Source: Desulfuromusa sp. (lineage in GTDB: Bacteria > Desulfobacterota > Desulfuromonadia > Desulfuromonadales > Geopsychrobacteraceae). Taken from it: a stretch of DNA of 60,211 bases. Below the pieces are notes generated by a model, which worked only from the letters and a program-made list of their open reading frames with translations, was not told where the DNA came from and did no database searches. The position numbers were made by a program, and so were the translations under genes. The stretch covers positions 1-60,211 of the forward strand of contig JASFYS010000046.1 in the NCBI GenBank assembly GCA_045047095.1, read 5' to 3'. Of this stretch, positions 9,117 through 47,062 are shown piece by piece; the first letter of the stretch is position 1, and every line of letters starts with the position of its first letter.

Positions 9117-9281
9117 ATATATCCCTTATTTAGTTAAAATCATCAGTAAGCAATGTAAAATTCTAAGTTCAACTAGCAAGTACAAATGATACTACAATAT
9201 ACTTTTCTTGAATAAAAATATCAAATTTCATAGAAATTCAAAGACGACTATTCCCTCAGAGTGAGGTCATGAACAACAATC

Positions 9282-12442: not shown

Positions 12443-12445
12443 TTA

Positions 12446-15448: not shown

Positions 15449-17193
15449 CAAGAGTGATCCTCAAATTGTTTGTCATAAAGGCGCTTATACAGACCATTTT
15501 GCTGCAGTAATTCTTTATGACTTCCCGACTCAACAATCTCTCCTTTATCAAGAACCAGAATCCGGTCTGCATGCATAATTGTGGAAAGACGGTGAGCAAT
15601 AACAAAAGTGGTACGGTTAGCCATCAGATTTCCCAATGCCTGTTGAACCATGGCTTCACTTTCGGTATCCAGAGCGCTGGTCGCTTCATCCAGCAAAAGA
15701 ATTGGAGCATCTCGCAAAATCGCCCGGGCAATACAGATCCTCTGCCGTTGCCCTCCGGATAAGCGCACCCCACGATCGCCAACCAAGGTTTCATAACCAT
15801 CAGGAAGTTGACTGATGAATTCATCGGCATAAGCCTGACGTGCTGCAACCTCTACCGCGCTGAAATTAGCATCAGGTCGCCCATAACGAATATTGTTCAT
15901 GAGGGTGTCGTTAAACAGAAAGGTCTCCTGGTCAACCAAAGCCAGATTATCATGCAAACTTTTTTTGGTCAGGCTGCGGATATCCTTGCCATCAATCAAA
16001 ATCTGCCCCTGTTGTGGATCATAGAAACGATTTAACAACCCAATAAAGGTGCTTTTTCCGGCCCCGCTTGGCCCGACCAGAGCAACAACTTCTCCGGGTT
16101 TTGCAACGACAGAGAAATTACGTAAAACCAGATCATCGTCATAAGCAAAATCGACATTGTCAAAGCTGACATATCCCTGGCTACGAGGTAAATCAACAGC
16201 ATCTGGGGCATCAACAATCTCAGCTTGGTTATCCAGTACTTCAAAAACACGCTCAGCAGCACCGATAGCCTGCTGGATCACGTTATTGACCCGTGTCAAA
16301 CGTTTAAGCGGCGTGTACATTAACAAGATAGCCGTAAGAATAGAAAACAGTTCGCCTTTTGTCAGCGCTTCAGTTGCAACCCGATTCAGGCCATACCAAA
16401 GGACAGCTGCAACTCCAAACGAAGTCAATAACTCCATAATTGGTGAAGATGCCGCCGAATATTTAAAAGTCTTGCGGATAAACTTCAAAAACCCGGCATT
16501 TTCCCGAATAAATTTTTGCTCTTCCTGCTCTTCTGTGGCGAAAGCCTTAATGACCTTAATTCCGGAAAAGCTCTGTTCCAGGACAGCGGTAATCGTTCCC
16601 ATTGCTTCCTGACCTCTGCGGGAGAATTTTTTTATTTTTTTACCAATTGCCGCTGCCGGCCAGGAGGATGCCGGAATGACAATAAAGGCCATCGACGCCA
16701 TCTTCCAATCAGCATAAAATGCATAAGCGGTCAACGCCGTCAAGGTCAGAGTTTCTCGTAATAAAATCACCAGAACATCTGCGAACGCTGCCTGCATCAC
16801 ATTAATATCATTAAGAATTTTTGACATCAATGACCCCGAAGAGTTGTTGGTGAAGAAACGCGCTGATAATTTTATTGCATGACCGAAAACTTCATTGCGG
16901 ATATCCTGAATCGCATATTGCCCGGCACTGCGGATATTGTATTCCTGAATATAACGAGAGATGCCTTTGAATGCTGCCATGCCAACCACCAGAAATGGAA
17001 TCAACTTTACCAGTTTCAGGTTCCCAGCAATAATCAAATCATCAACAAATGGTTTAACCAGATAAGCGATAGCCGCATCTGATCCGGCAACCCCGAGTGA
17101 GGCAACCATTGACAGAGCAATAATCCATTTATAAGGAGCTGCATATTGGGCTATTCTAAAATAGATATTCTTTTGTTTATCGGTTAACAACAC
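15448..17193 (-). CDS. msbA: Lipid A export ABC transporter (TMD+NBD)
   Basis: GPSGAGKS, LSGGQRQRI, LDEATSALD; lies between lpxB and waaA. Confidence 0.9.
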   Translation of the reverse strand: MLLTDKQKNIYFRIAQYAAPYKWIIALSMVASLGVAGSDAAIAYLVKPFVDDLIIAGNLKLVKLIPFLVVGMAAFKGISRYIQEYNIRSAGQYAIQDIRNEVFGHAIKLSARFFTNNSSGSLMSKILNDINVMQAAFADVLVILLRETLTLTALTAYAFYADWKMASMAFIVIPASSWPAAAIGKKIKKFSRRGQEAMGTITAVLEQSFSGIKVIKAFATEEQEEQKFIRENAGFLKFIRKTFKYSAASSPIMELLTSFGVAAVLWYGLNRVATEALTKGELFSILTAILLMYTPLKRLTRVNNVIQQAIGAAERVFEVLDNQAEIVDAPDAVDLPRSQGYVSFDNVDFAYDDDLVLRNFSVVAKPGEVVALVGPSGAGKSTFIGLLNRFYDPQQGQILIDGKDIRSLTKKSLHDNLALVDQETFLFNDTLMNNIRYGRPDANFSAVEVAARQAYADEFISQLPDGYETLVGDRGVRLSGGQRQRICIARAILRDAPILLLDEATSALDTESEAMVQQALGNLMANRTTFVIAHRLSTIMHADRILVLDKGEIVESGSHKELLQQNGLYKRLYDKQFEDHS

Positions 17194-30611: not shown

Positions 30612-31607
30612 TCAGGCTGACCCCCCGCCCTGGTGACTGTGACGAATACGCGGATCAGCCAGAGCATAACAGATATCTGCCAAGAGATTCCCAAGCAATG
30701 TCAGCACAGCGCCCATCACCAGAATCCCCATAATCAACGGATAGTCCCGCATCATAACACCATCGTAAAAAAGTTTTCCCATCCCCGGAATGGCAAAAAT
30801 AGTTTCAAAAATAACACTCCCACCAATTAATCCGGGAACCGAAAGCCCGAGGATAGTAATAACTGGAAGCAATGCATTGCGTAACGCATGTTTATAAATC
30901 ACCGTCCGTTCTGACAGCCCCTTTGCCCGGGCAGTGAGGATATAATCCTGGCGGATCACCTCAAGCATATTAGAACGCATATAACGGGAAAACCCTGCCA
31001 ACCCACCGATCGCAGAGACAAAAACTGGCAGGATTAAGTGATTGATCCGGTCGATTAGTTGTCCACCCCAGCTTAAATATTCATAACCGAGGGATTTCAA
31101 CCCGGAAACCGGCAACAAGCCCAGGCGGACGCCGAACCAATCCATCAGTAGCAATGCCAGCCAGAAAGAGGGCATGGCAAAACCAGTAAAGACCAAAATC
31201 GTAGTCGTACGATCAAAACCTGAATTCCGTTGAATTGCGGAAAGAATCCCCAGTGGAATAGAAACGGCAAGGATCAAAATAATCGAGAGCGAATTGAGTA
31301 AAATAGTAACCGGTAATCGTTCCAGCACTTTATCCAGAACCGGCCTGCGGTCGGTCGCAAAAGATTCGCCAAAATCGAGTTGCACCAAACGTGACAACCA
31401 CTTTCCATATTGGACGTAAAGAGGTTGATCAAGTCCATATTGAGACCGGAGTCGCTGTTGCAGCTCAGAACTGACTTGTGGATTGAGCTGCGTTTGCATA
31501 TCCGTCGGTTCTCCCGGTGCCAGATGGATCACGACAAAAGAAATCAGTGTGATCCCCAACAATAACGGGATAAGCAACAACAGACGTTTCGCAATATAGC
31601 TCAGCAT
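30612..31607 (-). CDS. Peptide/nickel ABC transporter permease (OppB/AppB-like)
   Basis: [27 protein letters not shown]. Confidence 0.9.
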
Positions 31608-31688
31608 ACGATAAATACTCTCGCAAAAAACGACTAATCACCTGAACCGCAATAGGTTATCGGCTGGTCATATACAACATCAGTAAAA

Positions 31689-31797
31689 GGGACTGTCCCC
31701 GCATGGGGGCTGTCCCAGGCTTTTGTGATGCAAACCCCCGCAATTTCATTGCCCGTAAACTCTTGGAACCGCCCCCGATGGAGCTGGGGACAGTCCC
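31689..31797. repeat. GGGACTGTCCC...GGGACAGTCCC-bounded REP-like element, copy 1
   Basis: Palindromic ends with inner GGGGGCTGTCCC; closely similar to the reverse complement of 58097-58206. Confidence 0.8.
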
Positions 31798-31806
31798 GAG
31801 GGTACT

Positions 31807-33444
31807 CTAGCGCGAGTACTTCTGTTCAACTTGTGGCACAAACCATTGGTTGAAATTATAACGAATTCCAGCTGGAGCAGGTTCTACCCCTCGAAACCGC
31901 TTGGAAACTGCTGGCAAAGCCTCCCCGACATACAAAAAGGTATAGGGCTGCTCTTCCGCCAATATTTCCTGAAATCGGTCATAATAAACTTTGCGCTGTT
32001 GCAGATCAAAAACCCGCCGCCCCTGTTCCAGTAATTTGTCAACTTCAGCATTTTTAAAGCCGATAAAATTAAGCTCGCGTGGTCCAGTTTTGCTGGAGTG
32101 CCAGATATTATACTGATCCGGTTCCGGTCCGCCAGTCCAGCCTAAAATTGTAGCATCAAAATTCCCTGGATTTATAAATTCTTTGAGAAACGTCGCCCAC
32201 TCAATAATCCGCAATTTTACTTCAACACCGATCTCCTTGAAACGACGCTGAATAATTTCACCCGTTTTTGAGCGCAGATCGTTCCCCTGGTTGGTAACAA
32301 TGGTAAAAGCCAGCTCCTTACCGTCTTTATCTAAAATGCCATTCCCATCAGTATCCTTCCAGCCTGCCTCCGCTAAAAGCTGTCGGGCTTTATCAGGATT
32401 ATATAAATAGGTTGGAACATCAGAATTATAAACCCAGGTGTCAGGCTTGTAAGGCCCGGTTGCAACGGTACCATATCCCAGCAAAACACCATCAATAAGT
32501 TCCTGCTTGTTTATTGCATAGGAAAGCGCCTGTCTGACACGCTTATCCTGAAAAATCGGGCGATTCAAATTATAACCCAGGTAAGTATAGCCAAAATTCA
32601 AGTAGCGATATTTATTATACAACCGTCTGAACGCGGGAGTATCGGTCTGCCGATCAAACTGCAACGGCGAAAGCCCCATAAAATCAAGACTGCCGGTCTG
32701 TAATTCAAGAAACTGGGTAGAAATATCGGGGATAATCCGATAAACCACCCGCTTGATATAGGGTTGTCCCTCAAAATAGTCGGGGTTCGATTCAAGAACA
32801 ATTTTTTCTCCCCCCACCCATTCAGCAAAGCGGTATGGTCCGGTTCCAACCGGGTTACGAGCCAACTTGCTTTTGGTAATATCCTCCCCATCCAAAAGAT
32901 GTTTGGGATGGATAGCCATCGCCCAGCTGATCAAAGCCGGAGCATAGGGTCTGTCATAATGGACCACAAAAGTATAGGGATCAGGGGTTTCAACTCCCGT
33001 CACTTGTTTGAACGATTCGGCATAAGCAGTCGGAGTTTTGGGATCAATATAAAGCTGATAGTTAAATTTGACGTCAGCAGCAGTAAAAGGAACTCCATCG
33101 TGCCAAGTCACATACTTGCGCAGATGAAAAGTAATGGTTAAATTGTCATCGGAGATATCCCAACTTTCAGCCAGCTCCCCCTCAATTTGCAGATTTTTAT
33201 CGTAGCGAACCAGACCGTTATAAATCAGACCATTGATCGAACTGGAAGCAGAATCAGATGCCAAGACCGGCAGCAGGGTACTGGCATCCCCGATTGAGGC
33301 TTCAATAAAAGTATCACCAAATTCTGGAGTCAACGCTTCTGCAACCCCGGGATGGTTGACTTTATCAGAACTATTATTACAAGCGCTGAGCAATAATAAT
33401 CCAAAAGAATAAAACAGAAATTTATAACAAAATATATTTCTCAT
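31807..33444 (-). CDS. Peptide ABC transporter substrate-binding lipoprotein (family 5)
   Basis: Lipobox LSAC, WHDGVPFTAADV, PVGTGPY, VRQALSYAIN. Confidence 0.9.
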   Translation of the reverse strand: MRNIFCYKFLFYSFGLLLLSACNNSSDKVNHPGVAEALTPEFGDTFIEASIGDASTLLPVLASDSASSSINGLIYNGLVRYDKNLQIEGELAESWDISDDNLTITFHLRKYVTWHDGVPFTAADVKFNYQLYIDPKTPTAYAESFKQVTGVETPDPYTFVVHYDRPYAPALISWAMAIHPKHLLDGEDITKSKLARNPVGTGPYRFAEWVGGEKIVLESNPDYFEGQPYIKRVVYRIIPDISTQFLELQTGSLDFMGLSPLQFDRQTDTPAFRRLYNKYRYLNFGYTYLGYNLNRPIFQDKRVRQALSYAINKQELIDGVLLGYGTVATGPYKPDTWVYNSDVPTYLYNPDKARQLLAEAGWKDTDGNGILDKDGKELAFTIVTNQGNDLRSKTGEIIQRRFKEIGVEVKLRIIEWATFLKEFINPGNFDATILGWTGGPEPDQYNIWHSSKTGPRELNFIGFKNAEVDKLLEQGRRVFDLQQRKVYYDRFQEILAEEQPYTFLYVGEALPAVSKRFRGVEPAPAGIRYNFNQWFVPQVEQKYSR

Positions 33445-33463
33445 AAAATCTTATCAATTTCAT

Positions 33464-34219
33464 TCACGGGAGGGTTTCAAGGGGGATATTCTCAGGCTTT
33501 TCCAGATGAAACTGGACAATATTAATCCTCTCATTGACCTTGAGTTCAGAAAAATTGACTTTCACCCGCGTCTGCTCCAAAGGCATTGCAATCTTAACAA
33601 GATGTGGAAAATGACTCTTTTTTGAAAATTCTTGATAATCAACTGAGAGGTATTGTTTTCCAGCTCTGAAATAATGGCACCCGATGACCTGAAGTTGCCG
33701 ATCAAACAGCAGTTCCTGCCGGTTATTATTATTTGACAGAACCAGCTTCAAAGCTCCTGATGTTAATTCAACGCTGTAATTTTGATAATCTATCAGGGGC
33801 GGATCATACAGCAATAACGCCAGCAGATCTTTGGTCGCCAGAGGGATCCGTATAAACCGGAAAATATTCTCATAGCTCGCTGGGCCCCGGAGAAACCGAC
33901 CCGGGACAGTCGTCTTGAGAAACACCGACAAAGTTTCACCGTCAGAGGTCATTTGTAGAATCAGTTGACCAAATCCGGTTAAGACATCGGTTCGTAAAAG
34001 ATCGGGTTTTTGCAACAATAGAAACTGTTGACTGGTAAAAAATTTATCCCTGGTTGTCAAAGAGACACTTGCAGCACCATCCAATGATGAGTAACGGCCT
34101 GATGTAGAGGCAAGATGAACCAGCAACTGATCTGCGGTAGGAATGTCAGTCCAATCCGGCTCTGACGGGCGAATACAACCTGTCAGCCCGACCAATAAGA
34201 AAAAAATCAGCCACCGCAT
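33464..34219 (-). CDS. Lipoprotein, LolB-like/DUF4292-type
   Basis: Lipobox LTGC; beta-rich body; follows a TPR lipoprotein, the usual context for LolB-like genes. Confidence 0.5.
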   Translation of the reverse strand: MRWLIFFLLVGLTGCIRPSEPDWTDIPTADQLLVHLASTSGRYSSLDGAASVSLTTRDKFFTSQQFLLLQKPDLLRTDVLTGFGQLILQMTSDGETLSVFLKTTVPGRFLRGPASYENIFRFIRIPLATKDLLALLLYDPPLIDYQNYSVELTSGALKLVLSNNNNRQELLFDRQLQVIGCHYFRAGKQYLSVDYQEFSKKSHFPHLVKIAMPLEQTRVKVNFSELKVNERINIVQFHLEKPENIPLETLP

Positions 34220-35958
34220 TAATGTTCCTCCAATAACAGCAATTTGAGTTTTTCTTCCACTTGCGTCGCCTGCGGATCAATTTCCAGCACCCGTCGATAC
34301 ACCGATGCAGCCTTCTCCCAAAGCTTCATGGCAGAGTAAAGATCCCCCAAGTGCTCCTGAATGACAGCATCATCAGGATGCAATTTAACCGCTTTTTCAA
34401 GTTGCTCACGGCTTTCTGGGTAACACCCCATTTTGAAATAAATCCAGCCCAAAGTATCAACAATATAACCACTTGGCTTGATCGCTAATGCTTTTTGAGC
34501 TCGGCTCAACGCTAACTCCAGATCAATCTCATTTTCGGCCTGATCATACGCAAGAAAATTCAATGCGTCCGAATGGGAATCATCCAGCAACAAAATTTTC
34601 TCCATCGTTTGGACCGCAAGCTGGCGCTTATCTTGTTTTTCGTACAGCACCCCAAGTTGATAAAGTAGCTGTGTCGCGTCGGGATTTTTTTCAATGCCGT
34701 CCAGAGCAACTTGAACCGCCTGTTCATAATCTTCACGATCCCCAAGAAAAGCAACCAGGTAATAATAGACATCGGGTTGATGAATATCCTGTTTGATTAT
34801 CTGTTGTAACTTTGCTATAGCCTTATCATCCCGATCAGACTGTTTATACAGATAAGCCAGCTGCAAAGCCGCTTCAGTATAAATCGAAGAATCTTGACCA
34901 ATCGGTTCTAAAGCAGAAATAGCCTCATCAATTTTGCCCTGTCCTGACAAAGCCATGGCAAGATAATAACGACTGCGCCCATGCTGATCGTCCGAGTTCA
35001 GGAGGAGACGGAAAGCATTCTCAGCTTCAGCCCAATTTTCCAGCTCCAGTTGAATCAGGCCGATTTGATTGATAACTGGCAAATTGTCAGGAAACTGCTG
35101 GCGGACAGCCTGGAGCTGCAAGAGGGCGTCCTCAGGCTGGCGGCGAACAAGAAAATATTGCGCCAACTGTTGCCGCACCGCTGCGGCTCTTGGATTACGA
35201 GTAATAAAAGCTTGATACAGTTCCAGGGCAGCATCTTGATCCTGCCTCTCCAATAACTTGCCATATTCAAGAACCGCCGGTAGCTGATCCGGCTGCTTCT
35301 TCAGCAATTTTTTATAGATCGCAGTGGCTTTATCCGCCTGCTTTGCGTCTAGATATAAACGAGCCAGAGTAAGTTGTGCCAAGCCTGATTCCGGTTGCTG
35401 CTTCAGTAACGTCTCCAAAACAACTATTGCTTCGTCCTTACGATCGAGCCGGGTCAGGTCTATTGCTATGCGCAACGGCAATGCATCATTTTTGGGTGTC
35501 AACTCTAAAGCCCGACGGAAATGGTCAATTGCAGATTCATAGTCCTGTTGATAGCTAAAAACATCACCCAACAGCTCATGCGCAGCAACATTTTCAGGAT
35601 CTCCTGCCAGCAAGGCTTCTAAAGTGGTAACGGCTTGTTCGGGCTGCTGCTGGTGTAAATAGGCCTTCGCCAGAATCAGCTGCAGATAATCCGATTGCGG
35701 ATCAAAGCTTAGGGCTCGTTGCAGCGCAGCAATCGCCTCTTCCCAGCGATTTTCCGCAGCAAGAATTCTGAATTCGCTAAATGCAAAAAGGGACTTTGCT
35801 TCGGGATCAACCAATTCTGAGCGATAATTAACGGCACTTGCATCTTCGGGAACAGGTGCCTGAGACCGGTTGACGGCAACGCAACCAGAAATAAAAACCA
35901 GAGTGGAAAGCAAGCAGCAAACCGTTGTTTTTACGGTAAATAAATCTTGAATCTTCAA
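34219..35958 (-). CDS. Tetratricopeptide-repeat lipoprotein
   Basis: ISGC lipobox, multiple TPRs, ALNFLAY...YIVDTLGWIYFK...EHLGD. Confidence 0.85.
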   Translation of the reverse strand: MKIQDLFTVKTTVCCLLSTLVFISGCVAVNRSQAPVPEDASAVNYRSELVDPEAKSLFAFSEFRILAAENRWEEAIAALQRALSFDPQSDYLQLILAKAYLHQQQPEQAVTTLEALLAGDPENVAAHELLGDVFSYQQDYESAIDHFRRALELTPKNDALPLRIAIDLTRLDRKDEAIVVLETLLKQQPESGLAQLTLARLYLDAKQADKATAIYKKLLKKQPDQLPAVLEYGKLLERQDQDAALELYQAFITRNPRAAAVRQQLAQYFLVRRQPEDALLQLQAVRQQFPDNLPVINQIGLIQLELENWAEAENAFRLLLNSDDQHGRSRYYLAMALSGQGKIDEAISALEPIGQDSSIYTEAALQLAYLYKQSDRDDKAIAKLQQIIKQDIHQPDVYYYLVAFLGDREDYEQAVQVALDGIEKNPDATQLLYQLGVLYEKQDKRQLAVQTMEKILLLDDSHSDALNFLAYDQAENEIDLELALSRAQKALAIKPSGYIVDTLGWIYFKMGCYPESREQLEKAVKLHPDDAVIQEHLGDLYSAMKLWEKAASVYRRVLEIDPQATQVEEKLKLLLLEEH

Positions 35959-36220
35959 AAAAATATTCCTTCAAATAAGCGCTAGCATGAAAAACATTAA
36001 CTATTGATAAGTAGCACACTCATTTCGCGAGCGTCAAACCCTTAAAAAAATCATCAGATCAACTTTACAGAGTTGAAATTTCTGGTAAATTGCCACCATG
36101 TGAAACTTATAATTATTGTTGTAATTCTATCCTTTCAGGATTAGTCTGTAATGTGCGTGCACAAAATTAAAGAAGCAATACTCAAATTTTTCCAGAGTCA
36201 ATGAGCTAAAAGGTCAATCG

Positions 36221-36472
36221 ATGAAAGAACCACAAAGAAACTCAATCAGAGAAGCCTGGATCCTCTGTCTGATTCTAGGTGTGGTTATGATCAATTTCCC
36301 CTTTATCCATATCTTCAATACCACGGGACTGCTTTTTGGAATCCCGGAACTGGTTCTTTATTTCTTTATCGGTTGGCCAATCTCAATCGCCGTTATCTGG
36401 CTTTTTGTACGCTACCTTGAAAAAGACTCACAAAATAGCTCTAAAATAGTGGGGGACAAGAGCGACCCATGA
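36221..36472 (+). CDS. Small two-TM membrane protein translationally coupled to the SLC5 sensor
   Basis: Two hydrophobic segments (NFPFIHIFN..LFGIPELVLYFFIGW); ATGA overlap with the next gene. Confidence 0.7.
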   Translation: MKEPQRNSIREAWILCLILGVVMINFPFIHIFNTTGLLFGIPELVLYFFIGWPISIAVIWLFVRYLEKDSQNSSKIVGDKSDP

Positions 36473-39400
36473 TCCCGGCAAAGACCATTCTCTTTATGTC
36501 GATCATCTCTACAAAAACTGTCCTCCTTGTCTCCTTTGGCTATTTTGCACTGTTATTTCTGGTTGCCTTGTATGCTGAGAAATGCCGCAAGACCGGAAAC
36601 TGCCTGCTAAAAAATTCACATATCTACTCACTGTCGATTGCTGTTTATTGCACCAGCTGGACCTATTACGGGAGTGTCGGCAAAGCAGCAACCAGCGGTC
36701 TGGAGTTCTTACCGATTTACTTAGGTCCTACTCTCGTTGCTTTTGCCTGGTGGTTTTTACTCCGCAAGATGCTTCTCATCAGCAAACAACAGAACATTAC
36801 CAGTATTGCTGATTTTCTTTCCAGTCGCTATGATCGTTCCACCGTTCTTGGTGCAATTGTCACTCTGTTTGCAGTCTTTGGTATTACCCCCTATATCGCG
36901 TTACAGTTGAAAGCCATTTCCCAGACATTAAGCATCCTGTCGATGCCATTAACGATGCCTGGCACCGGTTTATACGATTATGCCTCGAAACTTCCATGGA
37001 GAATCGATATCGCATTCTTCGTGGCGCTACTATTGGCACTGTTTGGTATGTTGTTTGGTGCCAGAACCCTTGATTCTTCCGAAAAACACGAAGGGCTGGT
37101 TGTCGCAGTTGCCTTTGAATCTATTGTAAAATTGGTCGCTTTCCTGGCTGTCGGTATTTTTGTCACCTATGGTCTGTTCGATGGCTATATCGATGTCTTC
37201 CAACGCTTTTTTGAACAATTTCCCGAACGTCGCGACCTGCTCCTGCTGGGGACACAACAGACCCCTTACACCAAATGGTTCACGCTGATTGTTTTGTCGA
37301 TGATGGCAGTGATGTTTCTCCCCCGCCAATTTCACATTATGATTACAGAAAATACCGATGAGCAGCATATCAAATCAGCAATGTGGAAATTTCCAGCATA
37401 CCTTTTTCTCATGAACTTGTTTGTCCTGCCAATTGCTCTTGGTGGTTTGATCATCAATGGCGGCGACACAACCCAAGCGGATTATTTTGTCCTGACCCTG
37501 CCCCTCTCTACGGGACATCCCTGGTTAGCACTCTTGGTGTTCATTGGGGGATTGTCTTCATCTGCTGGAATGGTCATGGTCTCTTCAGTAACAATAGCAA
37601 CAATGGTTCTGAACCATCTGGTCATGCCGATTATTTTGAGAATGAATATTCATGCACAAAGCCTTTCCAGGCTTTTGATCAATATTAAACGGCTTGGTAT
37701 TCTTGGGGTAATCTTCATCGGTTATTTCTATTTTAAACTTATTGGTAATTCTTACGCTTTGGTTAATATGGGATTAATATCCTTTTCTGCGGTCACTCAA
37801 TTTGCGCCAGCAGTACTCGGCGGACTGTTCTGGAAAAGAGCCAACCGTAGAGCAGCAATAACAGGAATCAGTTTGGGTTTTGCGCTGTGGTTTTATACCC
37901 TGCTAATTCCTTCATTTGTCCGTTCCGGATGGCTCCATTCAGATATCCTGCAAAATGGTTTATATGGCATCAACCTCTTAAAGCCTCTGGAACTTTTTGG
38001 CCTGCGCGGGTTTGATATGTACAGCCACTCACTGTTCTGGAGCATGCTGTTTAATCTGTCGGCCTATTTAACCATATCCTTCTTTGCCAAACAGACGAGA
38101 TCAGAAGAAATCCAAGCTGAAAAATTTGTTGATGTCTTTGTGGATCAATCACAGCAACCAGACAAACTGAGGCGCATCAGCAAAGCCCCAACGGTTATGG
38201 AGTTTGTAGAATTAATGTCCAAGTTTATCGGCGAAAAACCGGCTCAAGCTGCCATAGCTGATTATTTAAGCTATCAAGAAATTGATTCCCGGGGAAACCT
38301 CTCAGATCACGAAATCCCAAACTTGAAAAGTTTTACAGAACGCACCCTGGCCGGCCATGTGGGTACAGCTCCAGCGCACATTATTCTGGAAAACTATCTC
38401 GCTGCTCGCGGCAGTGAGATGGAAGATGTTTTTGATATTTTTGGGACGGTCACTATCAACCACGCTTCCAGTCGCGAACAGTTGAGTGTGCTCTACGATG
38501 CAGCGCAAATTGTTTCCAGCGAAGGAGATTTCCAAAAAACCCTTGATAACATTCTGGAACTTCTTGCGCAGCAATTTAAATTTGATCTCTGTGTGATCCG
38601 CTTTCTAGAACCGGAATCGATGACACTGATTGTCAAGAGTCTGGTCGGAACATCCTCGGAATATTTTGGTCAGTTTGAACGCAATCTCAATACGGAGACC
38701 TATATTGGACAGGCATTCCTCTCCAATGTAACGACTGTTGTCAATGACACTGACCTGATTGAAAAACCAACCTCAGCAGAACATATCAAGCGCGATGGGA
38801 TTACCTGTCTAGCCCACACTCCGATCGTTTCTGAGGGAGAGACAATCGGTATTCTATCGGCTTTTTCCAAAACCTCAAAAGGAATTTTTACTCAAGAATT
38901 TATTGCTCTGTTCGAAAACCTTGCGGGTCAAATTGGGATTGCCTGGCGCAACGACCAACAACTCCAGAAGCTTCTTCTCGGTCGGGAACAAGAACGAGAG
39001 ATGCAGATTGCTAAAGATATCCAGAAAACTCTCCTCCCGACAAATCTGCCCACCCTGGGGCATATTGATATTGCTGGTCTGTGTGTTCCAGCGCATCAGG
39101 TTGGAGGAGATTATTACGACTTTATTGAACGCAACAGTTCAGCTTACGACCTCATTATTGCTGATGTGTCAGGACACAGTATTGGTTCAGCGCTGATCAT
39201 GGCGGAAACACGAACTTTTATCCACGCCCGGATTGAAACTATTAAACACCCGGCTGAGATGTTACTGGCTCTCAACAGTTATTTCCTTAAAGATCTGGAT
39301 CGTTCCGATCTGTTTGTTACTATGTTTTATTTACAATATAATCCTATAACCCACCGACTTATTTATGGCAATGCTGGGCATAACAACCCCTTGCTCTGGA

Positions 39401-39720
39401 AAAAAAGTCAACAGAAGCTCGTTAGTCTGGATGCAGAGGGGTTGATTTTCGGGATTAAAGATAACATCTCCTTTGAACAGAAAGCGACTGATCTGGAATC
39501 AGGAGATATTCTGCTTCTCTATACAGACGGAATTGTAGAAGCTGAGAATAAGGATAATGATTTTTTCGGGATAGACAGGCTTGGAAAAATACTTTCAGAG
39601 TGTGATGATTTAGGTTCACAAGAATTGATCGATCGGATTATGATACAAGGTCGAATTTTTACCGGAATGCGTCATTTTAAAGATGATATTACCCTGGTTG
39701 TCATGAGGATTTTAAAATGA
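36469..39720 (+). CDS. SLC5/sodium:solute symporter-like domain + STAC + GAF + PP2C (SpoIIE/RsbU) phosphatase fusion
   Basis: N-terminus has CbrA/CrbS-type YSLSIAVYCTSWTYYGSVG, PYIALQLKA, ESIVKL and LPRQFH. STAC-like SKFIGEKPA...TERTLAGHVG, then a GAF region. PP2C motifs VGGDYYDF, ADVSGH, NAGH, YTDGIVE, DDITL. Confidence 0.85.
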   Translation: MIPAKTILFMSIISTKTVLLVSFGYFALLFLVALYAEKCRKTGNCLLKNSHIYSLSIAVYCTSWTYYGSVGKAATSGLEFLPIYLGPTLVAFAWWFLLRKMLLISKQQNITSIADFLSSRYDRSTVLGAIVTLFAVFGITPYIALQLKAISQTLSILSMPLTMPGTGLYDYASKLPWRIDIAFFVALLLALFGMLFGARTLDSSEKHEGLVVAVAFESIVKLVAFLAVGIFVTYGLFDGYIDVFQRFFEQFPERRDLLLLGTQQTPYTKWFTLIVLSMMAVMFLPRQFHIMITENTDEQHIKSAMWKFPAYLFLMNLFVLPIALGGLIINGGDTTQADYFVLTLPLSTGHPWLALLVFIGGLSSSAGMVMVSSVTIATMVLNHLVMPIILRMNIHAQSLSRLLINIKRLGILGVIFIGYFYFKLIGNSYALVNMGLISFSAVTQFAPAVLGGLFWKRANRRAAITGISLGFALWFYTLLIPSFVRSGWLHSDILQNGLYGINLLKPLELFGLRGFDMYSHSLFWSMLFNLSAYLTISFFAKQTRSEEIQAEKFVDVFVDQSQQPDKLRRISKAPTVMEFVELMSKFIGEKPAQAAIADYLSYQEIDSRGNLSDHEIPNLKSFTERTLAGHVGTAPAHIILENYLAARGSEMEDVFDIFGTVTINHASSREQLSVLYDAAQIVSSEGDFQKTLDNILELLAQQFKFDLCVIRFLEPESMTLIVKSLVGTSSEYFGQFERNLNTETYIGQAFLSNVTTVVNDTDLIEKPTSAEHIKRDGITCLAHTPIVSEGETIGILSAFSKTSKGIFTQEFIALFENLAGQIGIAWRNDQQLQKLLLGREQEREMQIAKDIQKTLLPTNLPTLGHIDIAGLCVPAHQVGGDYYDFIERNSSAYDLIIADVSGHSIGSALIMAETRTFIHARIETIKHPAEMLLALNSYFLKDLDRSDLFVTMFYLQYNPITHRLIYGNAGHNNPLLWKKSQQKLVSLDAEGLIFGIKDNISFEQKATDLESGDILLLYTDGIVEAENKDNDFFGIDRLGKILSECDDLGSQELIDRIMIQGRIFTGMRHFKDDITLVVMRILK

Positions 39721-39821
39721 TCATTAAAGCGACTCATTTTTTGGTCAACATTCCTAAAATAGGGTACACTTAAAATCAATTTATTAACATGACAAAACTG
39801 AACTCAAGAAGGAGAACTCGC

Positions 39822-40157
39822 ATGCAGTTGAAAATGACCGAACAAGGAGACATTGTTATCATTAATGTCGAAGAAGAACGGATGGATGCCTACAACAGCG
39901 GAGATCTTAAAGAACAAATGTTACAACTATTTGATGAGGGAAAGTGCAGTCTGGTGATTGATTTAAGCACCGTGCGATTTATCGATTCATCCGGTCTTGG
40001 TGCCCTGGTATCCGGTTTCAAAAATGCCAGTGCTCGTGAAGGGAGCCTTAAGCTATGCTGCCTTCAGCCACAAGTTCGATCAATGTTTGAATTGACCCGT
40101 CTCCATCGAGTTTTTGAAATTTTTCCCTCTCAGGATGAAGCATTAGCTAGTTTCTAG
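39822..40157 (+). CDS. STAS-domain anti-sigma factor antagonist (RsbV/SpoIIAA-like)
   Basis: IDLSTVRFIDSSGLGALV with the phospho-Ser; AAGGAG RBS before ATG 39822. Confidence 0.9.
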   Translation: MQLKMTEQGDIVIINVEEERMDAYNSGDLKEQMLQLFDEGKCSLVIDLSTVRFIDSSGLGALVSGFKNASAREGSLKLCCLQPQVRSMFELTRLHRVFEIFPSQDEALASF

Positions 40158-40188
40158 TCTGGATATAAACATCGATAGAAAGATCAAC

Positions 40189-40611
40189 ATGTCAAAGCAG
40201 GTTAAGATTGATATAACGGTTCCGAATCAAACCAAGTATCTCGGGATGATTGGACGCATTGGCGAAAGCATGGCTTATTCCCTGAAGGGCTACCATGGGA
40301 ATCGCCGGGAACTCGCCTATCACCTTAATCTGGTACTGACAGAAGCCTTAGCAAATGCAATAGGTCATGCACATGACTTCGATCCAGACAAAGATATCAG
40401 AGTCTCAATCTCTGCCTCTGATCAAGATATCATCATCAAGGTTTTCGATCAGGGGCAGGGTTTTGACCTGGAATCACTGGCTAAACTTAAAGCACGGGTG
40501 AGTGCTGAAGGGGGTCGTGGGATCCAGATTATTTTTAAATTAATGGATCAAGTCAGATATATTCAGGAAGGCGACAGTAACGTCTTAGAAATGACCAAAT
40601 ATCTACACTAA
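40189..40611 (+). CDS. RsbW/SpoIIAB-like Ser kinase / anti-sigma factor (HATPase_c_2)
   Basis: EALANAIGH (N box), DQGQGFD (G1), GGRGI (G2). Confidence 0.88.
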   Translation: MSKQVKIDITVPNQTKYLGMIGRIGESMAYSLKGYHGNRRELAYHLNLVLTEALANAIGHAHDFDPDKDIRVSISASDQDIIIKVFDQGQGFDLESLAKLKARVSAEGGRGIQIIFKLMDQVRYIQEGDSNVLEMTKYLH

Positions 40612-40626
40612 TCCCCATAAATGTAT

Positions 40627-41973
40627 TTACCTGATTCCATATTCTTTCAACTTGCGCCTGAGCGTGAGTCGATTGATCCCAAGAATATCTGCCGTATGAG
40701 TTTTGTTGTGATCCGTCTTTTTATAAACTGTGAGAATATGTTGTTTTTCGACTTCAAAGAGCGGTAGCATTTCATCTATTGTTGATCTAACTTCCGAACA
40801 ACATCCTACCAATGTCAAATCTTCAGGGGTGATAGTCCCACCAGAATGGAGAAGTGTCGTGCGTTCAATGACGTTTTTCAGTTCTCTGACATTTCCAGGC
40901 CACGGGTGCTTTTTAAGACAAGTCAATGCGGCAACAGAAAACTCGCAGTTCTTCTCCGGGCTGTGCAACAGAAATTCTTTGAGGAACAGATTTGCCAATA
41001 ACGGGATATCTTCCGGATGATTTCGTAAGGAAGGAACCTGAATAGGAAACACGTTGAGACGATAGTATAGATCTTCACGGAACAGACCTGATTGGATCTG
41101 CTCATACAGATTTCTGTTGGTCGCTGTCACGATACGGACATCAACATGAATCGGTTGTTGTCCGCCAATTCGGGTCACCGTCATATCTTCAAGAACCCGA
41201 AGCAGTTTAGCCTGTAGCCCCGGTTCCATTTCAGCAATTTCATCCAGAAATAACGTCCCGCGATCGGCAAGTTCAAAGAGCCCTTTCTGACTATTTTTTG
41301 CGTCGGTATAAGCACCTCTCTCATGTCCAAAGAGCTCATTTTCCAGGAGCGATGCTGGCAGAGCAGCACAGTTAATTTTGAGCAATGGCCCTTCGCTACG
41401 AGAACTCTGATAGTGAATAGCTTCTGCCACTAATTCTTTCCCAACACCACTTTCACCCAGAATCAGCGTCGTCGTTGCATTGGCTTTAGCAACCAACATA
41501 ATTTCCTGACGGATCTTTTTGAGGGTATTAGAATCCCCTTCAAGGCGGGTCCAGGAACGTTTATTGCGCTGTTTTTCACGTTGTCTGAAGGTCTTCACCT
41601 CACCGCGCAATTGACGCGTTTCCATTGCTCTTTCAACCAATATTTGTAACTCGTCCAGATCAAACGGCTTGTTGATGTAGTCAAAAGCTCCTAATTTTAG
41701 AGCGGTAACAGCAGTCTGTACCTCTGGAAAGGCTGTAGCAACAATAACCAACAGGGATTGTGGGTCAGGAACTTCTGCAAGCAGATCGAGACCAGAACCA
41801 TCAGGCAATTTCATATCCAGAATCATCAGGTCAAAATCGTGTTGACGCATTTCCTTTCTGGCTTCAAAGAGGGTCTCAGCACTTAGGGCGATATAATTTT
41901 CTTGCTGGAAAAAATCAACCAAACTCTCACGCAGCATCTCTTCATCTTCGACAATCAGAATCCTCCCGCGCAT
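40627..41973 (-). CDS. Sigma54-dependent NtrC-family response regulator (REC-AAA+-HTH)
   Basis: VEDE/LDMKLPD receiver, GESGVGKE, ENELFGHERGAYTDA, FREDLYYRL, WPGNVREL, Fis-type HTH. Confidence 0.93.
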   Translation of the reverse strand: MRGRILIVEDEEMLRESLVDFFQQENYIALSAETLFEARKEMRQHDFDLMILDMKLPDGSGLDLLAEVPDPQSLLVIVATAFPEVQTAVTALKLGAFDYINKPFDLDELQILVERAMETRQLRGEVKTFRQREKQRNKRSWTRLEGDSNTLKKIRQEIMLVAKANATTTLILGESGVGKELVAEAIHYQSSRSEGPLLKINCAALPASLLENELFGHERGAYTDAKNSQKGLFELADRGTLFLDEIAEMEPGLQAKLLRVLEDMTVTRIGGQQPIHVDVRIVTATNRNLYEQIQSGLFREDLYYRLNVFPIQVPSLRNHPEDIPLLANLFLKEFLLHSPEKNCEFSVAALTCLKKHPWPGNVRELKNVIERTTLLHSGGTITPEDLTLVGCCSEVRSTIDEMLPLFEVEKQHILTVYKKTDHNKTHTADILGINRLTLRRKLKEYGIR

Positions 41974-43925
41974 CCGCTACCTCCCTCTGGAAAATAAATA
42001 CTGGCTTCAACACCACCATGGGGGCGGTCGTTAAGATCGATTGTCCCCTTCATTTCAGCAACCAATTGTCTCACAATTGCCAGGCCTAACCCGGTTCCCT
42101 CGGGTTTACTGGTCACCAGTGGTTCAAAAAGCTGGTCAATCAGTTCTGCTGGTAAGCCGCAGCCATCATCATAAATTTTGATCTCAATCTGCCCCACGGA
42201 TCGACGTGCAAAGACATCAACTTGTCCATTTTCATCACAGGCTTGCAGCGCATTCAGAATGAGATTCATAAAGATCTGGTGGAGATACTGTGCTTTTGAG
42301 CAGACTAGTAGTGGCTCAGAAGGTAAATGGAGTTGTAATTGAATTTTATGTCGATCTGCTTCTTCGCAGAGGATAAAAGCAAGATCACGCAAAACTTGGC
42401 TGACATTTATCTGTTCTCGCTCCTGGTTCTGTTGTGGCGCCAGGTAGCTGGTTAAATGTCCAAGGAAATCTCCCAGACGATCAACCAGGTTCAGCATTTT
42501 GGTGATATCCAGCTGCAGTTTCTGATCAAGATCCGTGCGGCGTTGTAGCAGTTGCAGTTTCACCCGCATTCCTGCCAGGGGATTACCTATCTCATGGGCG
42601 ACAGTTGCTGACAACATTCCCAGCGAAGATAGCCTGTTTGCCTGCAACAGTTGCCGCTCTAAAGTTAGCATCAGCTTCTCGGCTGCATCTGCTTCTAGTT
42701 GCGAGCGATTAAGATCGGCGACCCTTTTTTCAACCTCTTCCTTTAAAAGCATATTCCAGTTAAGGAGTTCTGCATGTGTTTGTTGTTGAGATTGTGCCAT
42801 TTCATTCAAGGCACACGATAATTCTCCAAATTCATCACGACTGGTAATATTTACAATTGTCTCAAAATTGCCAGCAGCAATAGTGTTAGCAAAGCGGGAC
42901 AAACGACGAATCGGACGACTAAAACGCCGAGCTGCAATAATTGCCAGGGTCGAAGCAAGCAGGGCAAGCAATAGAAAAGAAAAGATGAAGGTTTTTTTTA
43001 GCTGCTTTAACTCGGCATAGAGATATTTCTGCGGGTAAGCAATGGTTAAATACCAGAGATGTCCAAATCCGGCACTGACCGATGCCGTAGCCAGGATATC
43101 AGACTGTACTGCGGCAACATTAGGCGCTTCATCTGGCTTGGGAAACAGACGTATGATCTGCTGGAAATTATCAAGTTCAGAGTTGTCGGCACTCAAAAAA
43201 TTAACCTTGCCTGCGTAGCTGTCCATCTTGATAAATTGATGGTTCTGATTGAATAGCAAAATACGAGTTCCATCGACATTGAGCAGATATTTCAGAGATG
43301 AAAGCAATTTTTCACCAAAGACATTGATGATAACCAGCCCTGCGGTTGCCCCTGAAGGATCGAGAATTGGGGCGGCAACCCTGACAACCAAACGTTTAGG
43401 CTCTTCGACCCGACCAAATTCCATATTAAGATCAAGATGCGAAACATAGGTTCCTCCTGGAGGGCAATGAAAAGCCTCCTGGATATAGTAGCGGTCACTT
43501 TTATCCTGTAAGTTGGATTCTGGAACCAGAACCGCTTTTCCATCAATATTGTTGATCCGCAGTTGTTCACGCCCATCCTTAGAAATAAAACGAATCTGAT
43601 AATAATCTTTTTCTACCATGATGGCCGCAAGAAACTCGTTCTGTATCAATGCCCATTGATCAGCATCCATATCCTTCTTGAGTCTCCGCTGTAAAAACCG
43701 GGCAAGAGAACGGACATCTCTTCTGACACCATTCAGATAATCTTCAATCGAGTTACCTGCCGTGATGACTTCCGCTTGTAACTCCTGATTAATCTGCGCG
43801 CGCAACGCTTTTTCCATGTGCTGCAAAGAAAGATTTCCCAAAAACAAAATTGGACCCAGAGACAGACCCAGAAACGCAATCAACATTTTTCTTCGAATTG
43901 ATAACGTTACCTGTGGAAACAGCAT
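41955..43925 (-). CDS. Sensor histidine kinase (periplasmic Cache-like + HAMP + HisKA + HATPase)
   Basis: Two TMs, YYQIRFI...QDKSDRYY Cache-like region, AHEIGNPL, NLILNALQA, DDGCG, GTGLGL. Confidence 0.92.
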   Translation of the reverse strand: MLFPQVTLSIRRKMLIAFLGLSLGPILFLGNLSLQHMEKALRAQINQELQAEVITAGNSIEDYLNGVRRDVRSLARFLQRRLKKDMDADQWALIQNEFLAAIMVEKDYYQIRFISKDGREQLRINNIDGKAVLVPESNLQDKSDRYYIQEAFHCPPGGTYVSHLDLNMEFGRVEEPKRLVVRVAAPILDPSGATAGLVIINVFGEKLLSSLKYLLNVDGTRILLFNQNHQFIKMDSYAGKVNFLSADNSELDNFQQIIRLFPKPDEAPNVAAVQSDILATASVSAGFGHLWYLTIAYPQKYLYAELKQLKKTFIFSFLLLALLASTLAIIAARRFSRPIRRLSRFANTIAAGNFETIVNITSRDEFGELSCALNEMAQSQQQTHAELLNWNMLLKEEVEKRVADLNRSQLEADAAEKLMLTLERQLLQANRLSSLGMLSATVAHEIGNPLAGMRVKLQLLQRRTDLDQKLQLDITKMLNLVDRLGDFLGHLTSYLAPQQNQEREQINVSQVLRDLAFILCEEADRHKIQLQLHLPSEPLLVCSKAQYLHQIFMNLILNALQACDENGQVDVFARRSVGQIEIKIYDDGCGLPAELIDQLFEPLVTSKPEGTGLGLAIVRQLVAEMKGTIDLNDRPHGGVEASIYFPEGGSGCAGGF

Positions 43926-44191: not shown

Positions 44192-44848
44192 ATGGAAAAC
44201 AATGGAAAGAAGACTTTTTTTGACAAAGGTGAGTTCTGTAAAAAATTTCTGCTCCCCGGAGCTGTCATTCTTATTCTTATTTTCTTTTTCTGTGGAGATA
44301 AAAAACCTGATATCCCTGACCCTGTTCCACTTAAGGCTGAATGGTATACACCGGAAACTGCACGTGGAGAGATTCTGGAAAATACCGTCATGCCGGGAAA
44401 TTGTTTCATCTGTCACAGTGTTCAAGTGCCAGACCCGAGTGTCATTCGTCCACAGTTTGCCCATGCAACAGTTAAACTGGAACATGGTGCCAATAATCGT
44501 TGTTTCAATTGTCACCATATCTATGATCGTGACAGCCTGGCTGGTGATGGTGAAAGCAAAATACCCTTTGCAACTCCTGAAAAACTCTGTGCCCGATGTC
44601 ACGGTCTTATTGTTAAAGACTGGCAGGAGGGAACTCATGGGTTGAGACAAGGCGGTTGGTTGATTAAAAATGGTGCAAACCCAGTTAACTTCACCTGTAC
44701 TGAGTGTCATGATCCCCATTCCCCAAAATTCAAATATGCAATTGCAGCTCCTGCTCCGGTTTGGCCCAAGAAGACAATCCGGACAACCAAACATGATGAA
44801 GATCCTAAATCTGCATACTTAATTGAATCACACCAGGAGAGCTTCTGA
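44192..44848 (+). CDS. Membrane-anchored tetraheme cytochrome c
   Basis: N-terminal TM; CFICH, CFNCH, CARCH, CTECH. Confidence 0.88.
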   Translation: MENNGKKTFFDKGEFCKKFLLPGAVILILIFFFCGDKKPDIPDPVPLKAEWYTPETARGEILENTVMPGNCFICHSVQVPDPSVIRPQFAHATVKLEHGANNRCFNCHHIYDRDSLAGDGESKIPFATPEKLCARCHGLIVKDWQEGTHGLRQGGWLIKNGANPVNFTCTECHDPHSPKFKYAIAAPAPVWPKKTIRTTKHDEDPKSAYLIESHQESF

Positions 44849-45798
44849 TGAGTACAGAAGAGCAAAAAGACCTTGAGCTGAACACCGAAAACCAGCAGGA
44901 ACCAGTTCTCAGTCGCCGCTATTTTCTTGCCGGAACAGCCTGTCTGTCAGTCGCTGCGGCAGTATCTTTATCACCGTTGCTGAATGCTGAGGAGGTTCCT
45001 TCCGCAGATGACTTTATCCAGCAGCATTACAACGAATTGAGTGATGAGGATAAAAAAGAAATCTTTGCCCGGCTCGAAGCTGAGGTTAAAGAAAAATATG
45101 GGGTAGCTGCTACGATATCTGACCCCCCACCCATGGAAGGTGTTGAGTTTGCTTATGTTCTCAACTTGGGGCGTTGTATCGGCTGCCGAAAATGTGTCTA
45201 TGCCTGCATGAAAGAAAATAATCTTTCCCGCAGCCCACAAAAACAATACATCCGCGTTCTGAAGATGAAAAAAGGCGCCATCAACCTGGAAACATCAAGC
45301 CATGACTATCCGGAGAAAGAAGCGGCTAGTGATGATTTCTTCTACATGCCCGTTGCTTGTCAGCAATGTCGTGAACCCAAATGTATTGAAGTCTGTCCGG
45401 TAAAAGCGACCTGGCAAGAGAAGGACGGCATTGTTGTTATCGACTACAACTGGTGTATCGGTTGTCGCTATTGTGAAGCAGCCTGTCCATACCACGCCAG
45501 ACGTTTCAATTTTGCCGCACCACAGGTTCCCGCGGAAGAGTTAAATCCAGACATGGGATATCTTTCCAATCGTCCACGCTATATGGGCGTCATGGAGAAG
45601 TGTACTTTCTGCCTGCACAGAACCAGGCGTGGCGAGTATCCAGCCTGCATGGAGGTCTGCCCGACTGGATCACGGAAATTTGGCAACCTCAGGGATCCCG
45701 AGAGTGAAGTGCGCAAAATAATAGAGCAGGAACGTGTATTTGTACTTAAACAGGAAGCCGGGACACTCCCGAAATTCTATTACACGTTTGCTAAATAA
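44848..45798 (+). CDS. Tat-exported 4x[4Fe-4S] protein (NrfC/DsrO/HybA-like)
   Basis: SRRYFL twin-arginine motif; CIGCRKCVYAC, CQQC..PKCIEVCP, CIGCRYCEAACP, CTFC..ACMEVCP. Confidence 0.9.
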   Translation: MSTEEQKDLELNTENQQEPVLSRRYFLAGTACLSVAAAVSLSPLLNAEEVPSADDFIQQHYNELSDEDKKEIFARLEAEVKEKYGVAATISDPPPMEGVEFAYVLNLGRCIGCRKCVYACMKENNLSRSPQKQYIRVLKMKKGAINLETSSHDYPEKEAASDDFFYMPVACQQCREPKCIEVCPVKATWQEKDGIVVIDYNWCIGCRYCEAACPYHARRFNFAAPQVPAEELNPDMGYLSNRPRYMGVMEKCTFCLHRTRRGEYPACMEVCPTGSRKFGNLRDPESEVRKIIEQERVFVLKQEAGTLPKFYYTFAK

Positions 45799-45847
45799 CG
45801 GGTCAGGAATGTTTTCACTTGCCAACTATTATCCGAAGGGGTGATCA

Positions 45848-47062
45848 ATGAAAGCTGGTTTTTCAGGATTTGTTAGTCATGCGGTCAAATCTATTTTGAT
45901 CGGAAATCGAACTTACACCTTATGGATGTTTGGGCTGATTGTTATCAGTATGTTTGGACTGAATGCCTTCAGTCGCCAGATTGCTCATGGCCTGTACACA
46001 ACCGGTATGGGGGATGAAGTTTCCTGGGGGCTCTATATCTCAAACTTTGCCTTTTTGGTGGGAATGGCTGCAGCAGCGGTTATGATGGTTATCCCGGCCT
46101 ATATTTTTAAAGACGAAGAAATCCACAAAGTTGTCATTTTTACCGAATTATGGGCGATTGCCGCACTAACCATGTGTCTGCTCTTCATCACCGCTGATAT
46201 CGGCCGCCCCGATCGTCTCTGGCACATGATCCCATTCCTCGGGATATTTCACTGGCCGATGTCAATGCTGACTTGGGATGTTTTAGTTTTAAACGGCTAT
46301 CTGCTCCTCAACATATACGTCTGCGGTTACGTTCTTTATAAAAAATATCATGGTCAAAAGCTGGTCGCTCGCCATTATCTCCCATTTGTCTTTCTTGCTA
46401 TTGCCTGGGCACCATTAATTCATACGATAACTGCATTTCTCTTCCAAGGATTGGCTGCCAGACCTTTCTGGCATACCGGTCTGATTGCACCTCGCTTCCT
46501 AGCATCTGCATTTGCTGCCGGACCCGCATTTATCATTCTGGTATTTAAAGTGATGGATTATTTTAAATGCTGCAAAATCCATCAGGATGTGATTGCGAAG
46601 ATACGGGTCATCATCACCGTCAGCTTATTAGCCAATCTACTTCTGGTAGGATCGGAACTTTTCACCGAGCTTTATTCCGGTTCTGAGCACTCTATCCACT
46701 TGGCTTTTCTGCTCGGCTTTCATGGGCCAAGCGTCCTCGCTCCATGGATGTGGGGCGCTATCATCCTCAATGTAATCGCAGCAATCATTTTACTTTTACC
46801 GGTGCGCCAAAACCCGCAGTTTTTAACCGTTGCCTGTGTCATGATAATTGTCGGTATCTGGGTTGAAAAAGGGTTGGGCTTTGTCATTTCCGGTTTTGTT
46901 CCAACACCACTCGGCGATTTTGTTCAATATCAACCATCACTCAACGAACTGACGGTCTGTTTCGGCATCCTGGCTTTTGGACTGCTGGTCTATACAGCAT
47001 TGCTGAAAGTTGCTGTACCAATTATCAATGGTGAACTCTGCCACAGAGAGAATAATGATTAA
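45848..47062 (+). CDS. NrfD/PsrC/DsrP-family quinol-interacting membrane subunit
   Basis: VSWGLYISNF, DIGRPDR, HTITAFL, APRFLASAF; many TMs. Confidence 0.88.
   Translation: MKAGFSGFVSHAVKSILIGNRTYTLWMFGLIVISMFGLNAFSRQIAHGLYTTGMGDEVSWGLYISNFAFLVGMAAAAVMMVIPAYIFKDEEIHKVVIFTELWAIAALTMCLLFITADIGRPDRLWHMIPFLGIFHWPMSMLTWDVLVLNGYLLLNIYVCGYVLYKKYHGQKLVARHYLPFVFLAIAWAPLIHTITAFLFQGLAARPFWHTGLIAPRFLASAFAAGPAFIILVFKVMDYFKCCKIHQDVIAKIRVIITVSLLANLLLVGSELFTELYSGSEHSIHLAFLLGFHGPSVLAPWMWGAIILNVIAAIILLLPVRQNPQFLTVACVMIIVGIWVEKGLGFVISGFVPTPLGDFVQYQPSLNELTVCFGILAFGLLVYTALLKVAVPIINGELCHRENND

Follow-up and report, generated by a model that had tools for sequence, protein, structure and literature searches.

What would a transporter-like sensor front end control if, in place of the histidine kinase to which it is usually attached, it ended in a serine phosphatase, and on what would such a phosphatase act in a genome with no SigB-type sigma factor in evidence? 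The question is raised by a four-gene operon (genes X, S, V and W) on contig JASFYS010000046.1 of Desulfuromusa sp. (class Desulfuromonadia; GenBank assembly GCA_045047095.1), analysed here over its whole length of 60,211 nucleotides (the window). We find that this transporter-phosphatase switch is real, class-wide and a new wiring of known parts; its components, intact motifs, conservation and pattern of gain and loss are read from the sequences themselves. The best explanation as a whole, to which we give a probability of roughly 0.35, would be a sensor-phosphatase operon that acts throughout the class by way of V and W, most likely on the housekeeping sigma factor RpoD.

The window carries the four genes as an intact unit on the + strand, in the order X-S-V-W, spanning 36221-40611, with the following features:

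36064..36091, + strand: possible sigma70-type promoter, weak (TTTACA-16-TAAATT)
36221..36472, + strand: X, an 83-residue two-helix membrane peptide with hydrophobic helices at residues 14-32 and 45-63
36469..39720, + strand: S, 1083 residues, SLC5-STAC-GAF-PP2C
36469..38103, + strand: SLC5 transporter-like domain of S (about residues 15-545); its pocket residues are conserved and its Na2 site has Lys221
38185..38409, + strand: STAC four-helix domain of S (about residues 573-647), aligned to the STAC region of CbrA
38497..38958, + strand: GAF domain of S (about residues 677-830; Pfam GAF 687-826)
38959..39720, + strand: helical linker (about 831-858) and PP2C/SpoIIE domain (859-1083) of S; Pfam SpoIIE 892-1081
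39822..40157 (alternative start 39789), + strand: V, a 111-residue STAS protein of the anti-sigma-antagonist type with predicted phosphosite Ser56 (FIDSSGLG)
40189..40611, + strand: W, a 140-residue RsbW/SpoIIAB-type serine kinase and predicted anti-sigma factor

The stop codon of X and the start codon of S overlap in an ATGA, an arrangement seen in 32 of 53 loci. For V the start at 39822, with AGGAGA 7 nucleotides upstream and a product of 111 residues (the commonest length among relatives), is most likely the true one, and because it was adopted the phosphosite is numbered Ser56. The promoter scan performed at chance level (12 sites versus 10.2 expected by chance); the putative promoter stretch is fairly conserved across 14 aligned upstream regions. 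The content of guanine plus cytosine in the operon is similar to that of the remainder of the window.

In S, residues 15-647 match CbrA's SLC5-STAC chain (PDB 10ED; E 1e-74) and the GAF domain matches PDB 2QYB (E 1e-26). The Pfam SSF model gave no match to the whole of S, with a bare pass on a 90-residue piece. An alignment-based model of residues 1-664, built from 50 aligned sequences, attained a predicted local distance difference test (pLDDT) score of 83 and matches the SGLT and NIS folds; helices at the STAC position span 576-587, 589-601, 616-631 and 633-645 (pLDDT about 60-78), and PDB 5A1Q, the direct STAC comparison, was absent among the structural matches listed. The LeuT fold and 13 helices of an SLC5 protein are thus provided by the 10ED match and the model, a crude hydropathy scan having placed 12 segments over its threshold. 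The PP2C motifs GGD, DVSGH, TDG and DD are invariant in all 62 full-length relatives, as are 83 of the 531 SLC5 columns among 62 sequences. Measured against five close relatives, nonsynonymous divergence across the four domains of S is 0.045-0.126 and synonymous divergence, close to saturation, is 0.9-2.9; by this measure purifying selection acts on every domain of S. The C-terminus is SpoIIE, without HisKA or HATPase_c, which places S outside the SLC5-STAC kinase subfamily.

Pfam assigns STAS to V and HATPase_c_2 to W, and TIGR00377 exceeds its cut-off for V; DSSGLG is invariant in 65/65 V sequences, and Ser56 aligns with the phosphorylatable serine of RsbV and SpoIIAA. W matches Bacillus subtilis RsbW (6M36; E 5e-9), and its N-box and G-box residues E52, N56, D87-G89-G91 and G109-G111 are invariant in 46/46 sequences, E52 being the glutamate that contacts the serine. 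In the genome of the window (G000) W is the sole stand-alone RsbW-type kinase found. Because V is likewise the only STAS protein found there, the PP2C domain of S likely acts on it. No relatives of V were found in viral contigs.

How far the arrangement extends was assessed in 66 loci of relatives from Desulfuromusa, Malonomonas, Pelovirga, Geopsychrobacter, Geothermobacter and Geobacteraceae, with counts limited to loci having sufficient flank. X lies upstream of S in 51 of 55 loci, V and W lie downstream in 55 of 59, and the complete four-gene order is kept in 45 of 49. Across 151 genomes of the class, S was present in 135 and V in 146. In a survey of the phylum (301 genomes) full-length matches to S were confined to the class of the window, in 10 of its 11 genomes, and in the eleventh the match runs off the end of a contig. 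Proteins of other classes resemble S only through GAF, and the 14 such proteins that were scanned end in histidine kinase domains. An earlier note on this DNA had proposed the span and its four + strand open reading frames, intact catalytic motifs, the four-domain architecture of S and a survey of synteny. All the reading frames were found as it described, the PP2C, STAS and kinase motifs are invariant among aligned relatives, GAF and SpoIIE are recognized by Pfam and SLC5-STAC by the CbrA match and structure model, and the order proved to be conserved, so that its picture of a transceptor joined to partner switching is borne out as an architecture by domains, motifs and synteny.

Nature has also dissected the operon. 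X and S are absent at the locus, with V and W kept, in 8/8 genomes of family f107 and in two others (G337 and G353), and only the linker and PP2C domain are left ahead of V and W in G379 and G407. Since these natural deletions keep V and W, the pair is, on comparative grounds, the core of the system and the sensor an input. X has been lost in 12/12 loci that lost the SLC5 part, several of which share ancestry, and this co-loss fits the packing of CbrX on the SLC5 domain of CbrA (PMC13488458); X is likely the counterpart of CbrX by analogy. It matches no Pfam family over the cut-off, and against the Atlas entry 'solute:sodium symporter small subunit' it scores 0.89, short of the 0.9 mark.

Other proteins appear to converge on V. 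Some genomes carry extra 'orphan' copies of S without V and W, several of them with altered pocket residues, and REC-PAS-PP2C proteins share both the phosphatase clade and an identical flap sequence with S; such loops are reported to determine STAS specificity in Bacillus (PMC11418112). The loops of the other SpoIIE protein of G000 (contig C28, 708 residues) differ from those of S. V therefore looks like a hub fed by the extra S copies and the REC-PAS-PP2C proteins, as judged from these sequence likenesses. Among individual genomes, one metagenome-assembled genome has three S copies with V and W beside only one (L043, L057, L062), and G439 has six S matches, including a tandem pair with one copy frameshifted. 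On contig C28 of G000 (8858-15557) a GAF-HD protein is encoded close to the second, membrane-anchored SpoIIE phosphatase.

The sensor itself is likely descended from SLC5-STAC-GAF histidine kinases in which the output was swapped. In a quick tree of the SLC5-STAC part, rooted at the midpoint, 26 phosphatase forms make up a single clade (Shimodaira-Hasegawa-like approximate likelihood ratio test, 99) amid SLC5-STAC-GAF kinases of other classes, and the simplest reading of this topology is one kinase-to-phosphatase exchange after the GAF domain in the ancestor of the class. Modular exchange of this kind has been proposed for PPM phosphatases (PMC12143880). The outputs among the best 150 cluster representatives comprise 112 kinases, 4 GGDEF/EAL, 3 HD and 5 SpoIIE. 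One of the SpoIIE proteins, P0159 of Streptomyces albogriseolus, is SLC5-STAC-GAF-SpoIIE-HATPase_c_2 in a single chain. In a FastTree phylogeny of 139 rows (from which most of P0200-P0271 were omitted, P0265 among those omitted), this fusion and one metagenomic SpoIIE protein fall outside the phosphatase clade of the class, and because of its separate position the Streptomyces fusion is likely an independent event. The outputs noticed on the same sensor in P0159, P0198, P0265, P0166 and P0261 include SpoIIE with an RsbW-type kinase (the Streptomyces chain just named), SpoIIE with TPR, HD and tandem DUF835.

The mechanism we favour would run as follows. W would very probably phosphorylate Ser56 of V, and the PP2C domain of S would remove the phosphate. 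X would, with good probability, pack on the SLC5 domain of S as CbrX does on CbrA. Somewhat less securely, we would expect the SLC5-STAC module, proton-coupled via Lys221, to modulate the phosphatase through a GAF dimer and the helical linker. V without its phosphate would bind W and release the target of W, most likely RpoD, and the single V would receive input from pocket-variant S copies and from REC-PAS-PP2C phosphatases.

What S might sense can be approached from its pocket. The CbrA pocket is described as Y51/S53/W55/A56/F71/Y75/K196/F248/F406 (PMC13488458), and the corresponding residues of S are Y60/T62/W64/T65/F80/Y84/K221/S277/F439. Lys221 at the Na2 site is kept in 26/26 and suggests proton coupling. 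Where S departs from CbrA it does so as CrbS-like references do (CrbS labels being based on organism, length and layout, and the RpuS label on its plasmid). GAF-less kinase relatives (L123, L125, L127 and L129) adjoin acs, acyl-CoA hydrolase, SSF permease or CBS-nucleotidyltransferase genes, acetate-linked genes of a kind that the CrbS regulon is reported to comprise (PMC5715377), and 6 of 14 distinct orphan S copies adjoin acyl-CoA hydrolase, thioesterase, PrpR-type or TRAP genes, some pairs being congeneric. These contexts point, tentatively, to a short carboxylate such as acetate as the ligand of S. Several observations weigh against that assignment. The acetate context comes from the GAF-less kinases, and the closer GAF-kinases (L111, L115, L119) showed no acetate neighbours among the few scanned; no ligand hint was found near 8 of the 14 orphan loci, and no acetate gene adjoins the main operon. 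The pocket motif is widely shared in the family, including pyruvate-linked RpuS. For CbrA, histidine is reported to have left kinase activity unchanged and the SLC5 domain to be non-essential (PMC7096432), which also speaks against the simple form of the earlier note's proposal that solute binding or transport governs dephosphorylation of V. The profile of a succinyl:acetate CoA-transferase failed to distinguish genomes without the sensor from those with it (7 of 8 in f107 were positive) and so lends acetate no support.

It is quite conceivable, if short of an even chance, that the GAF domain reads a cytoplasmic signal and that SLC5-STAC is an anchor, a dimer scaffold or a minor transporter that tunes activity, an input compatible with any output. 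CbrA without SLC5 is reported still to signal (PMC7096432, PMC9100948), constraint on GAF equals that on the SLC5 domain, and the operons of G379 and G407 make do with linker and PP2C. On the other hand, the orphan copies alter exactly the pocket residues, as expected if the pocket sets specificity, and the invariant SLC5 columns noted above argue the same way.

The output was narrowed by asking which sigma factors accompany the switch. No SigB- or SigF-type sigma factor was found in the operon or in genome G000, whose four sigma70_r2 matches are RpoD, RpoS, FliA and one extracytoplasmic function (ECF)-like factor, a point that the earlier note had not raised. FliA occurs in 116/151 genomes and was not found in families f98 (0/11) and f99 (0/3), both of which keep S and V, and FliA/FlgM was rejected as the shared target on that account. 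RpoH was rejected as well, as it was not found in 8/8 genomes of the family of the window itself (f1; one of the eight a single contig), and 66 of the order's 68 other genomes have it. RpoS occurs in 145/151 genomes. Among the six misses, G353, G355 and G365 are without apt too and were excluded as gaps of assembly, G433 was set aside, and G305 (L224) and G315 (L225) show a surE-pcm-apt order from which the yqaA-nlpD-rpoS block is missing (genes named from their translations). Both keep intact S, V and W motifs; in G315 the only sigma70-family members are RpoD and an RpoH-like factor, with no ECF factor, and S is its sole SpoIIE protein. Downstream of apt in L225 we noticed what we take, from their pattern, to be clustered regularly interspaced short palindromic repeats.

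RpoD was present in 41/41 genomes checked. Because for each of FliA, RpoH, RpoS and the ECF factors there are lineages that lack it and yet retain the switch, only RpoD would remain if there is one shared sigma70 target, and we tentatively put it forward as the conserved target; chlamydial RsbW is reported to bind sigma66 (PMC4552016). There are counterarguments. RpoD is universal and cannot fail such an elimination, which in turn assumes a single shared sigma target; G305 (2.3 Mb) and G315 (1.8 Mb) are small, fragmented assemblies whose rpoS losses are possibly recent; and in five genomes with RpoD-bearing kin no V or W was found, so that the switch is dispensable.

The output might instead be no sigma factor at all, which we hold to be nearly as probable as the RpoD reading: V, in one of its phosphorylation states, would bind an effector in the manner of HsbA, SypA or BtrV, and W would be only its kinase. 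V is much more conserved than W (identity to G096 of 68% versus about 49%) and is single-copy in nearly all cases; none of the specialised sigma factors follows the switch in its distribution, and such outputs are reported to be common in Gram-negative bacteria (PMC8256260, PMC6482189). However, conservation of V is explicable by its fit to W and several phosphatases, and no effector gene is retained beside the operon, an APH/P-loop neighbour being found in only 123/151 genomes.

Less probable still is that W is mainly an anti-RpoS factor, like the CrsR and HsbR kinase domains, and that nutrient state, by way of the switch, sets the general stress response, with a second target or a recent loss explaining why the two genomes without rpoS retain the switch. 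The incidence of RpoS resembles that of V (145 and 146 of 151 genomes), and CrsR-CrsA and HsbR-HsbA are described as controlling RpoS in Gammaproteobacteria (PMC6482189). Yet G305 and G315, which belong to two genera, have V at 58-59% and W at 45-47% identity, no more diverged than in rpoS-bearing kin of their family, and four genomes (G333, G427, G431, G349) have RpoS with no W found.

That the locus is an assembly chimera, a set of chance neighbours or a decaying remnant, as split or frameshifted S copies in a handful of genomes (G325, and a single copy each in G439 and G351) might imply, has a negligible chance and is already refuted by purifying selection, conserved gene order and the full-length fusion in the isolates Desulfuromusa kysingii and Malonomonas rubra and in single-contig genomes.

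Returning to RpoD, a more specific version can be imagined for Geobacter, Desulfuromonas and their kin. The transporter-phosphatases would read acetate-type acids and set the free RpoD pool via the STAS hub, a carbon-sensing growth throttle of bacteria that reduce metals and electrodes, which would have been overlooked because of a frameshift in the copy that supplied the GAF crystal structure 2QYB. We regard this reading, explanation of the oversight included, as improbable. The GAF domain of G325 is identical to 2QYB over 178 residues; 2QYB we take to be a Geobacter sulfurreducens structural-genomics target. The S orthologue of G325 (L158:4940-4975) has one extra base in a C run at the start of PP2C, and an in-frame ATG follows the frameshift, from which a soluble phosphatase might still arise. 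Phosphatase-domain frameshifts are reported in a G. sulfurreducens 'anti-anti-sigma factor gene' (PMC2700814). This may be the S gene of G325, whose extra base may be a sequencing error.

The operon is flanked by genes of other kinds. Divergent from it, on the - strand at 30612-35958, lie genes for a TPR lipoprotein, a 251-residue lipoprotein without family and a peptide ATP-binding cassette (ABC) transporter; the TPR gene adjoins the operon throughout the class, and does so even at loci that have lost X and S. Convergent on W are a Cache-HAMP histidine kinase and a sigma54 response regulator (40627-43925, - strand), which were rejected as part of the operon since their position beside it is limited to some of the close relatives. 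Small cytochrome c, 4Fe-4S and NrfD-like membrane genes, named from their translations, follow at 44192-47062 on the + strand, divergent from the kinase/regulator pair. Elsewhere in the class it is usual for an APH-like and P-loop double-kinase gene to run into X or V (L097-L104, L138-L148); in G000 it lies on contig C56 (L172:3453-5042), after a sugar-type ABC transporter and facing an open reading frame that is presumably HipA-like. It was rejected as a core part, given the 123 genomes mentioned above and its location in G000. Contig C165 of G000 carries two SSF permease genes of 600 residues.

Both halves of the system have precedents, the SLC5-STAC sensor family (PMC5715377, PMC9100948, PMC4834066) and the partner switch (PMC7340262). 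Our literature search, which left subscription papers and supplements outside its scope, found no study of this operon, and to that extent the novelty suggested in the earlier note stands. It does not extend to the domain combination, as SSS+GAF+PP2C(+HATPase) proteins in Actinobacteria had already been noted from database counts, without experiments (PMC7918813), and outputs are freely swapped. The operon would represent a near-universal and apparently unstudied global regulator in a class of bacteria responsible for the reduction of iron and sulfur and for microbial electrochemistry. With it one could test cleanly the long-standing question of whether transport by an SLC5 'transceptor' controls output, since a phosphatase acting on one defined protein is a simple readout and nature's pocket variants and sensor-less forms can serve as controls. 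It also sharpens the question of what an Rsb switch does in bacteria without SigB, for which the loss pattern leaves RpoD or a partner of V that is no sigma factor.

Set beside known systems, S shares its SLC5-STAC front end and Na2-site Lys with CbrX-CbrA (Pseudomonas putida, PDB 10ED), CrbS/MxtR and RpuS, and with CbrX-CbrA also the small two-helix gene that overlaps the start of the sensor. It differs from CbrA, CrbS and RpuS in having a Ser phosphatase in place of a His kinase, GAF in place of PAS, and STAS and RsbW partners in place of a response regulator, and its pocket is CrbS-like and not CbrA-like. With RsbU/RsbP-RsbV-RsbW-SigB of B. subtilis and SpoIIE-SpoIIAA-SpoIIAB-SigF it has in common PP2C, a DS(S/T)G STAS protein and a GHKL kinase in the same order, but here the sensor has a transporter fold and no SigB or SigF was found; from its gene content the switch of the window is Rsb-like but not a SigB system. 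The actinobacterial SSS-GAF-PP2C-HATPase proteins have the same SLC5-STAC-GAF-SpoIIE chain, with the kinase domain fused, unlike the separate W. CrsR-CrsA (Shewanella) and HsbR-HsbA (Pseudomonas) are likewise switches of the proteobacterial type without SigB and with several possible outputs, yet they place REC, PP2C and kinase in one soluble, phosphorelay-fed chain, unlike S, and their RpoS and FlgM/FliA outputs do not track the system of the window. RsbU of Chlamydia trachomatis, presumably a periplasmic Cache-type sensor, differs from the SLC5 transporter of S. The chlamydial RsbU-RsbV1-RsbW-sigma66 system is described as also having a membrane sensor phosphatase, stand-alone V and W and no SigB (PMC4552016, PMC8256260). 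Its metabolite input and primary-sigma output form the model that we favour for the system of the window, where both are predictions.

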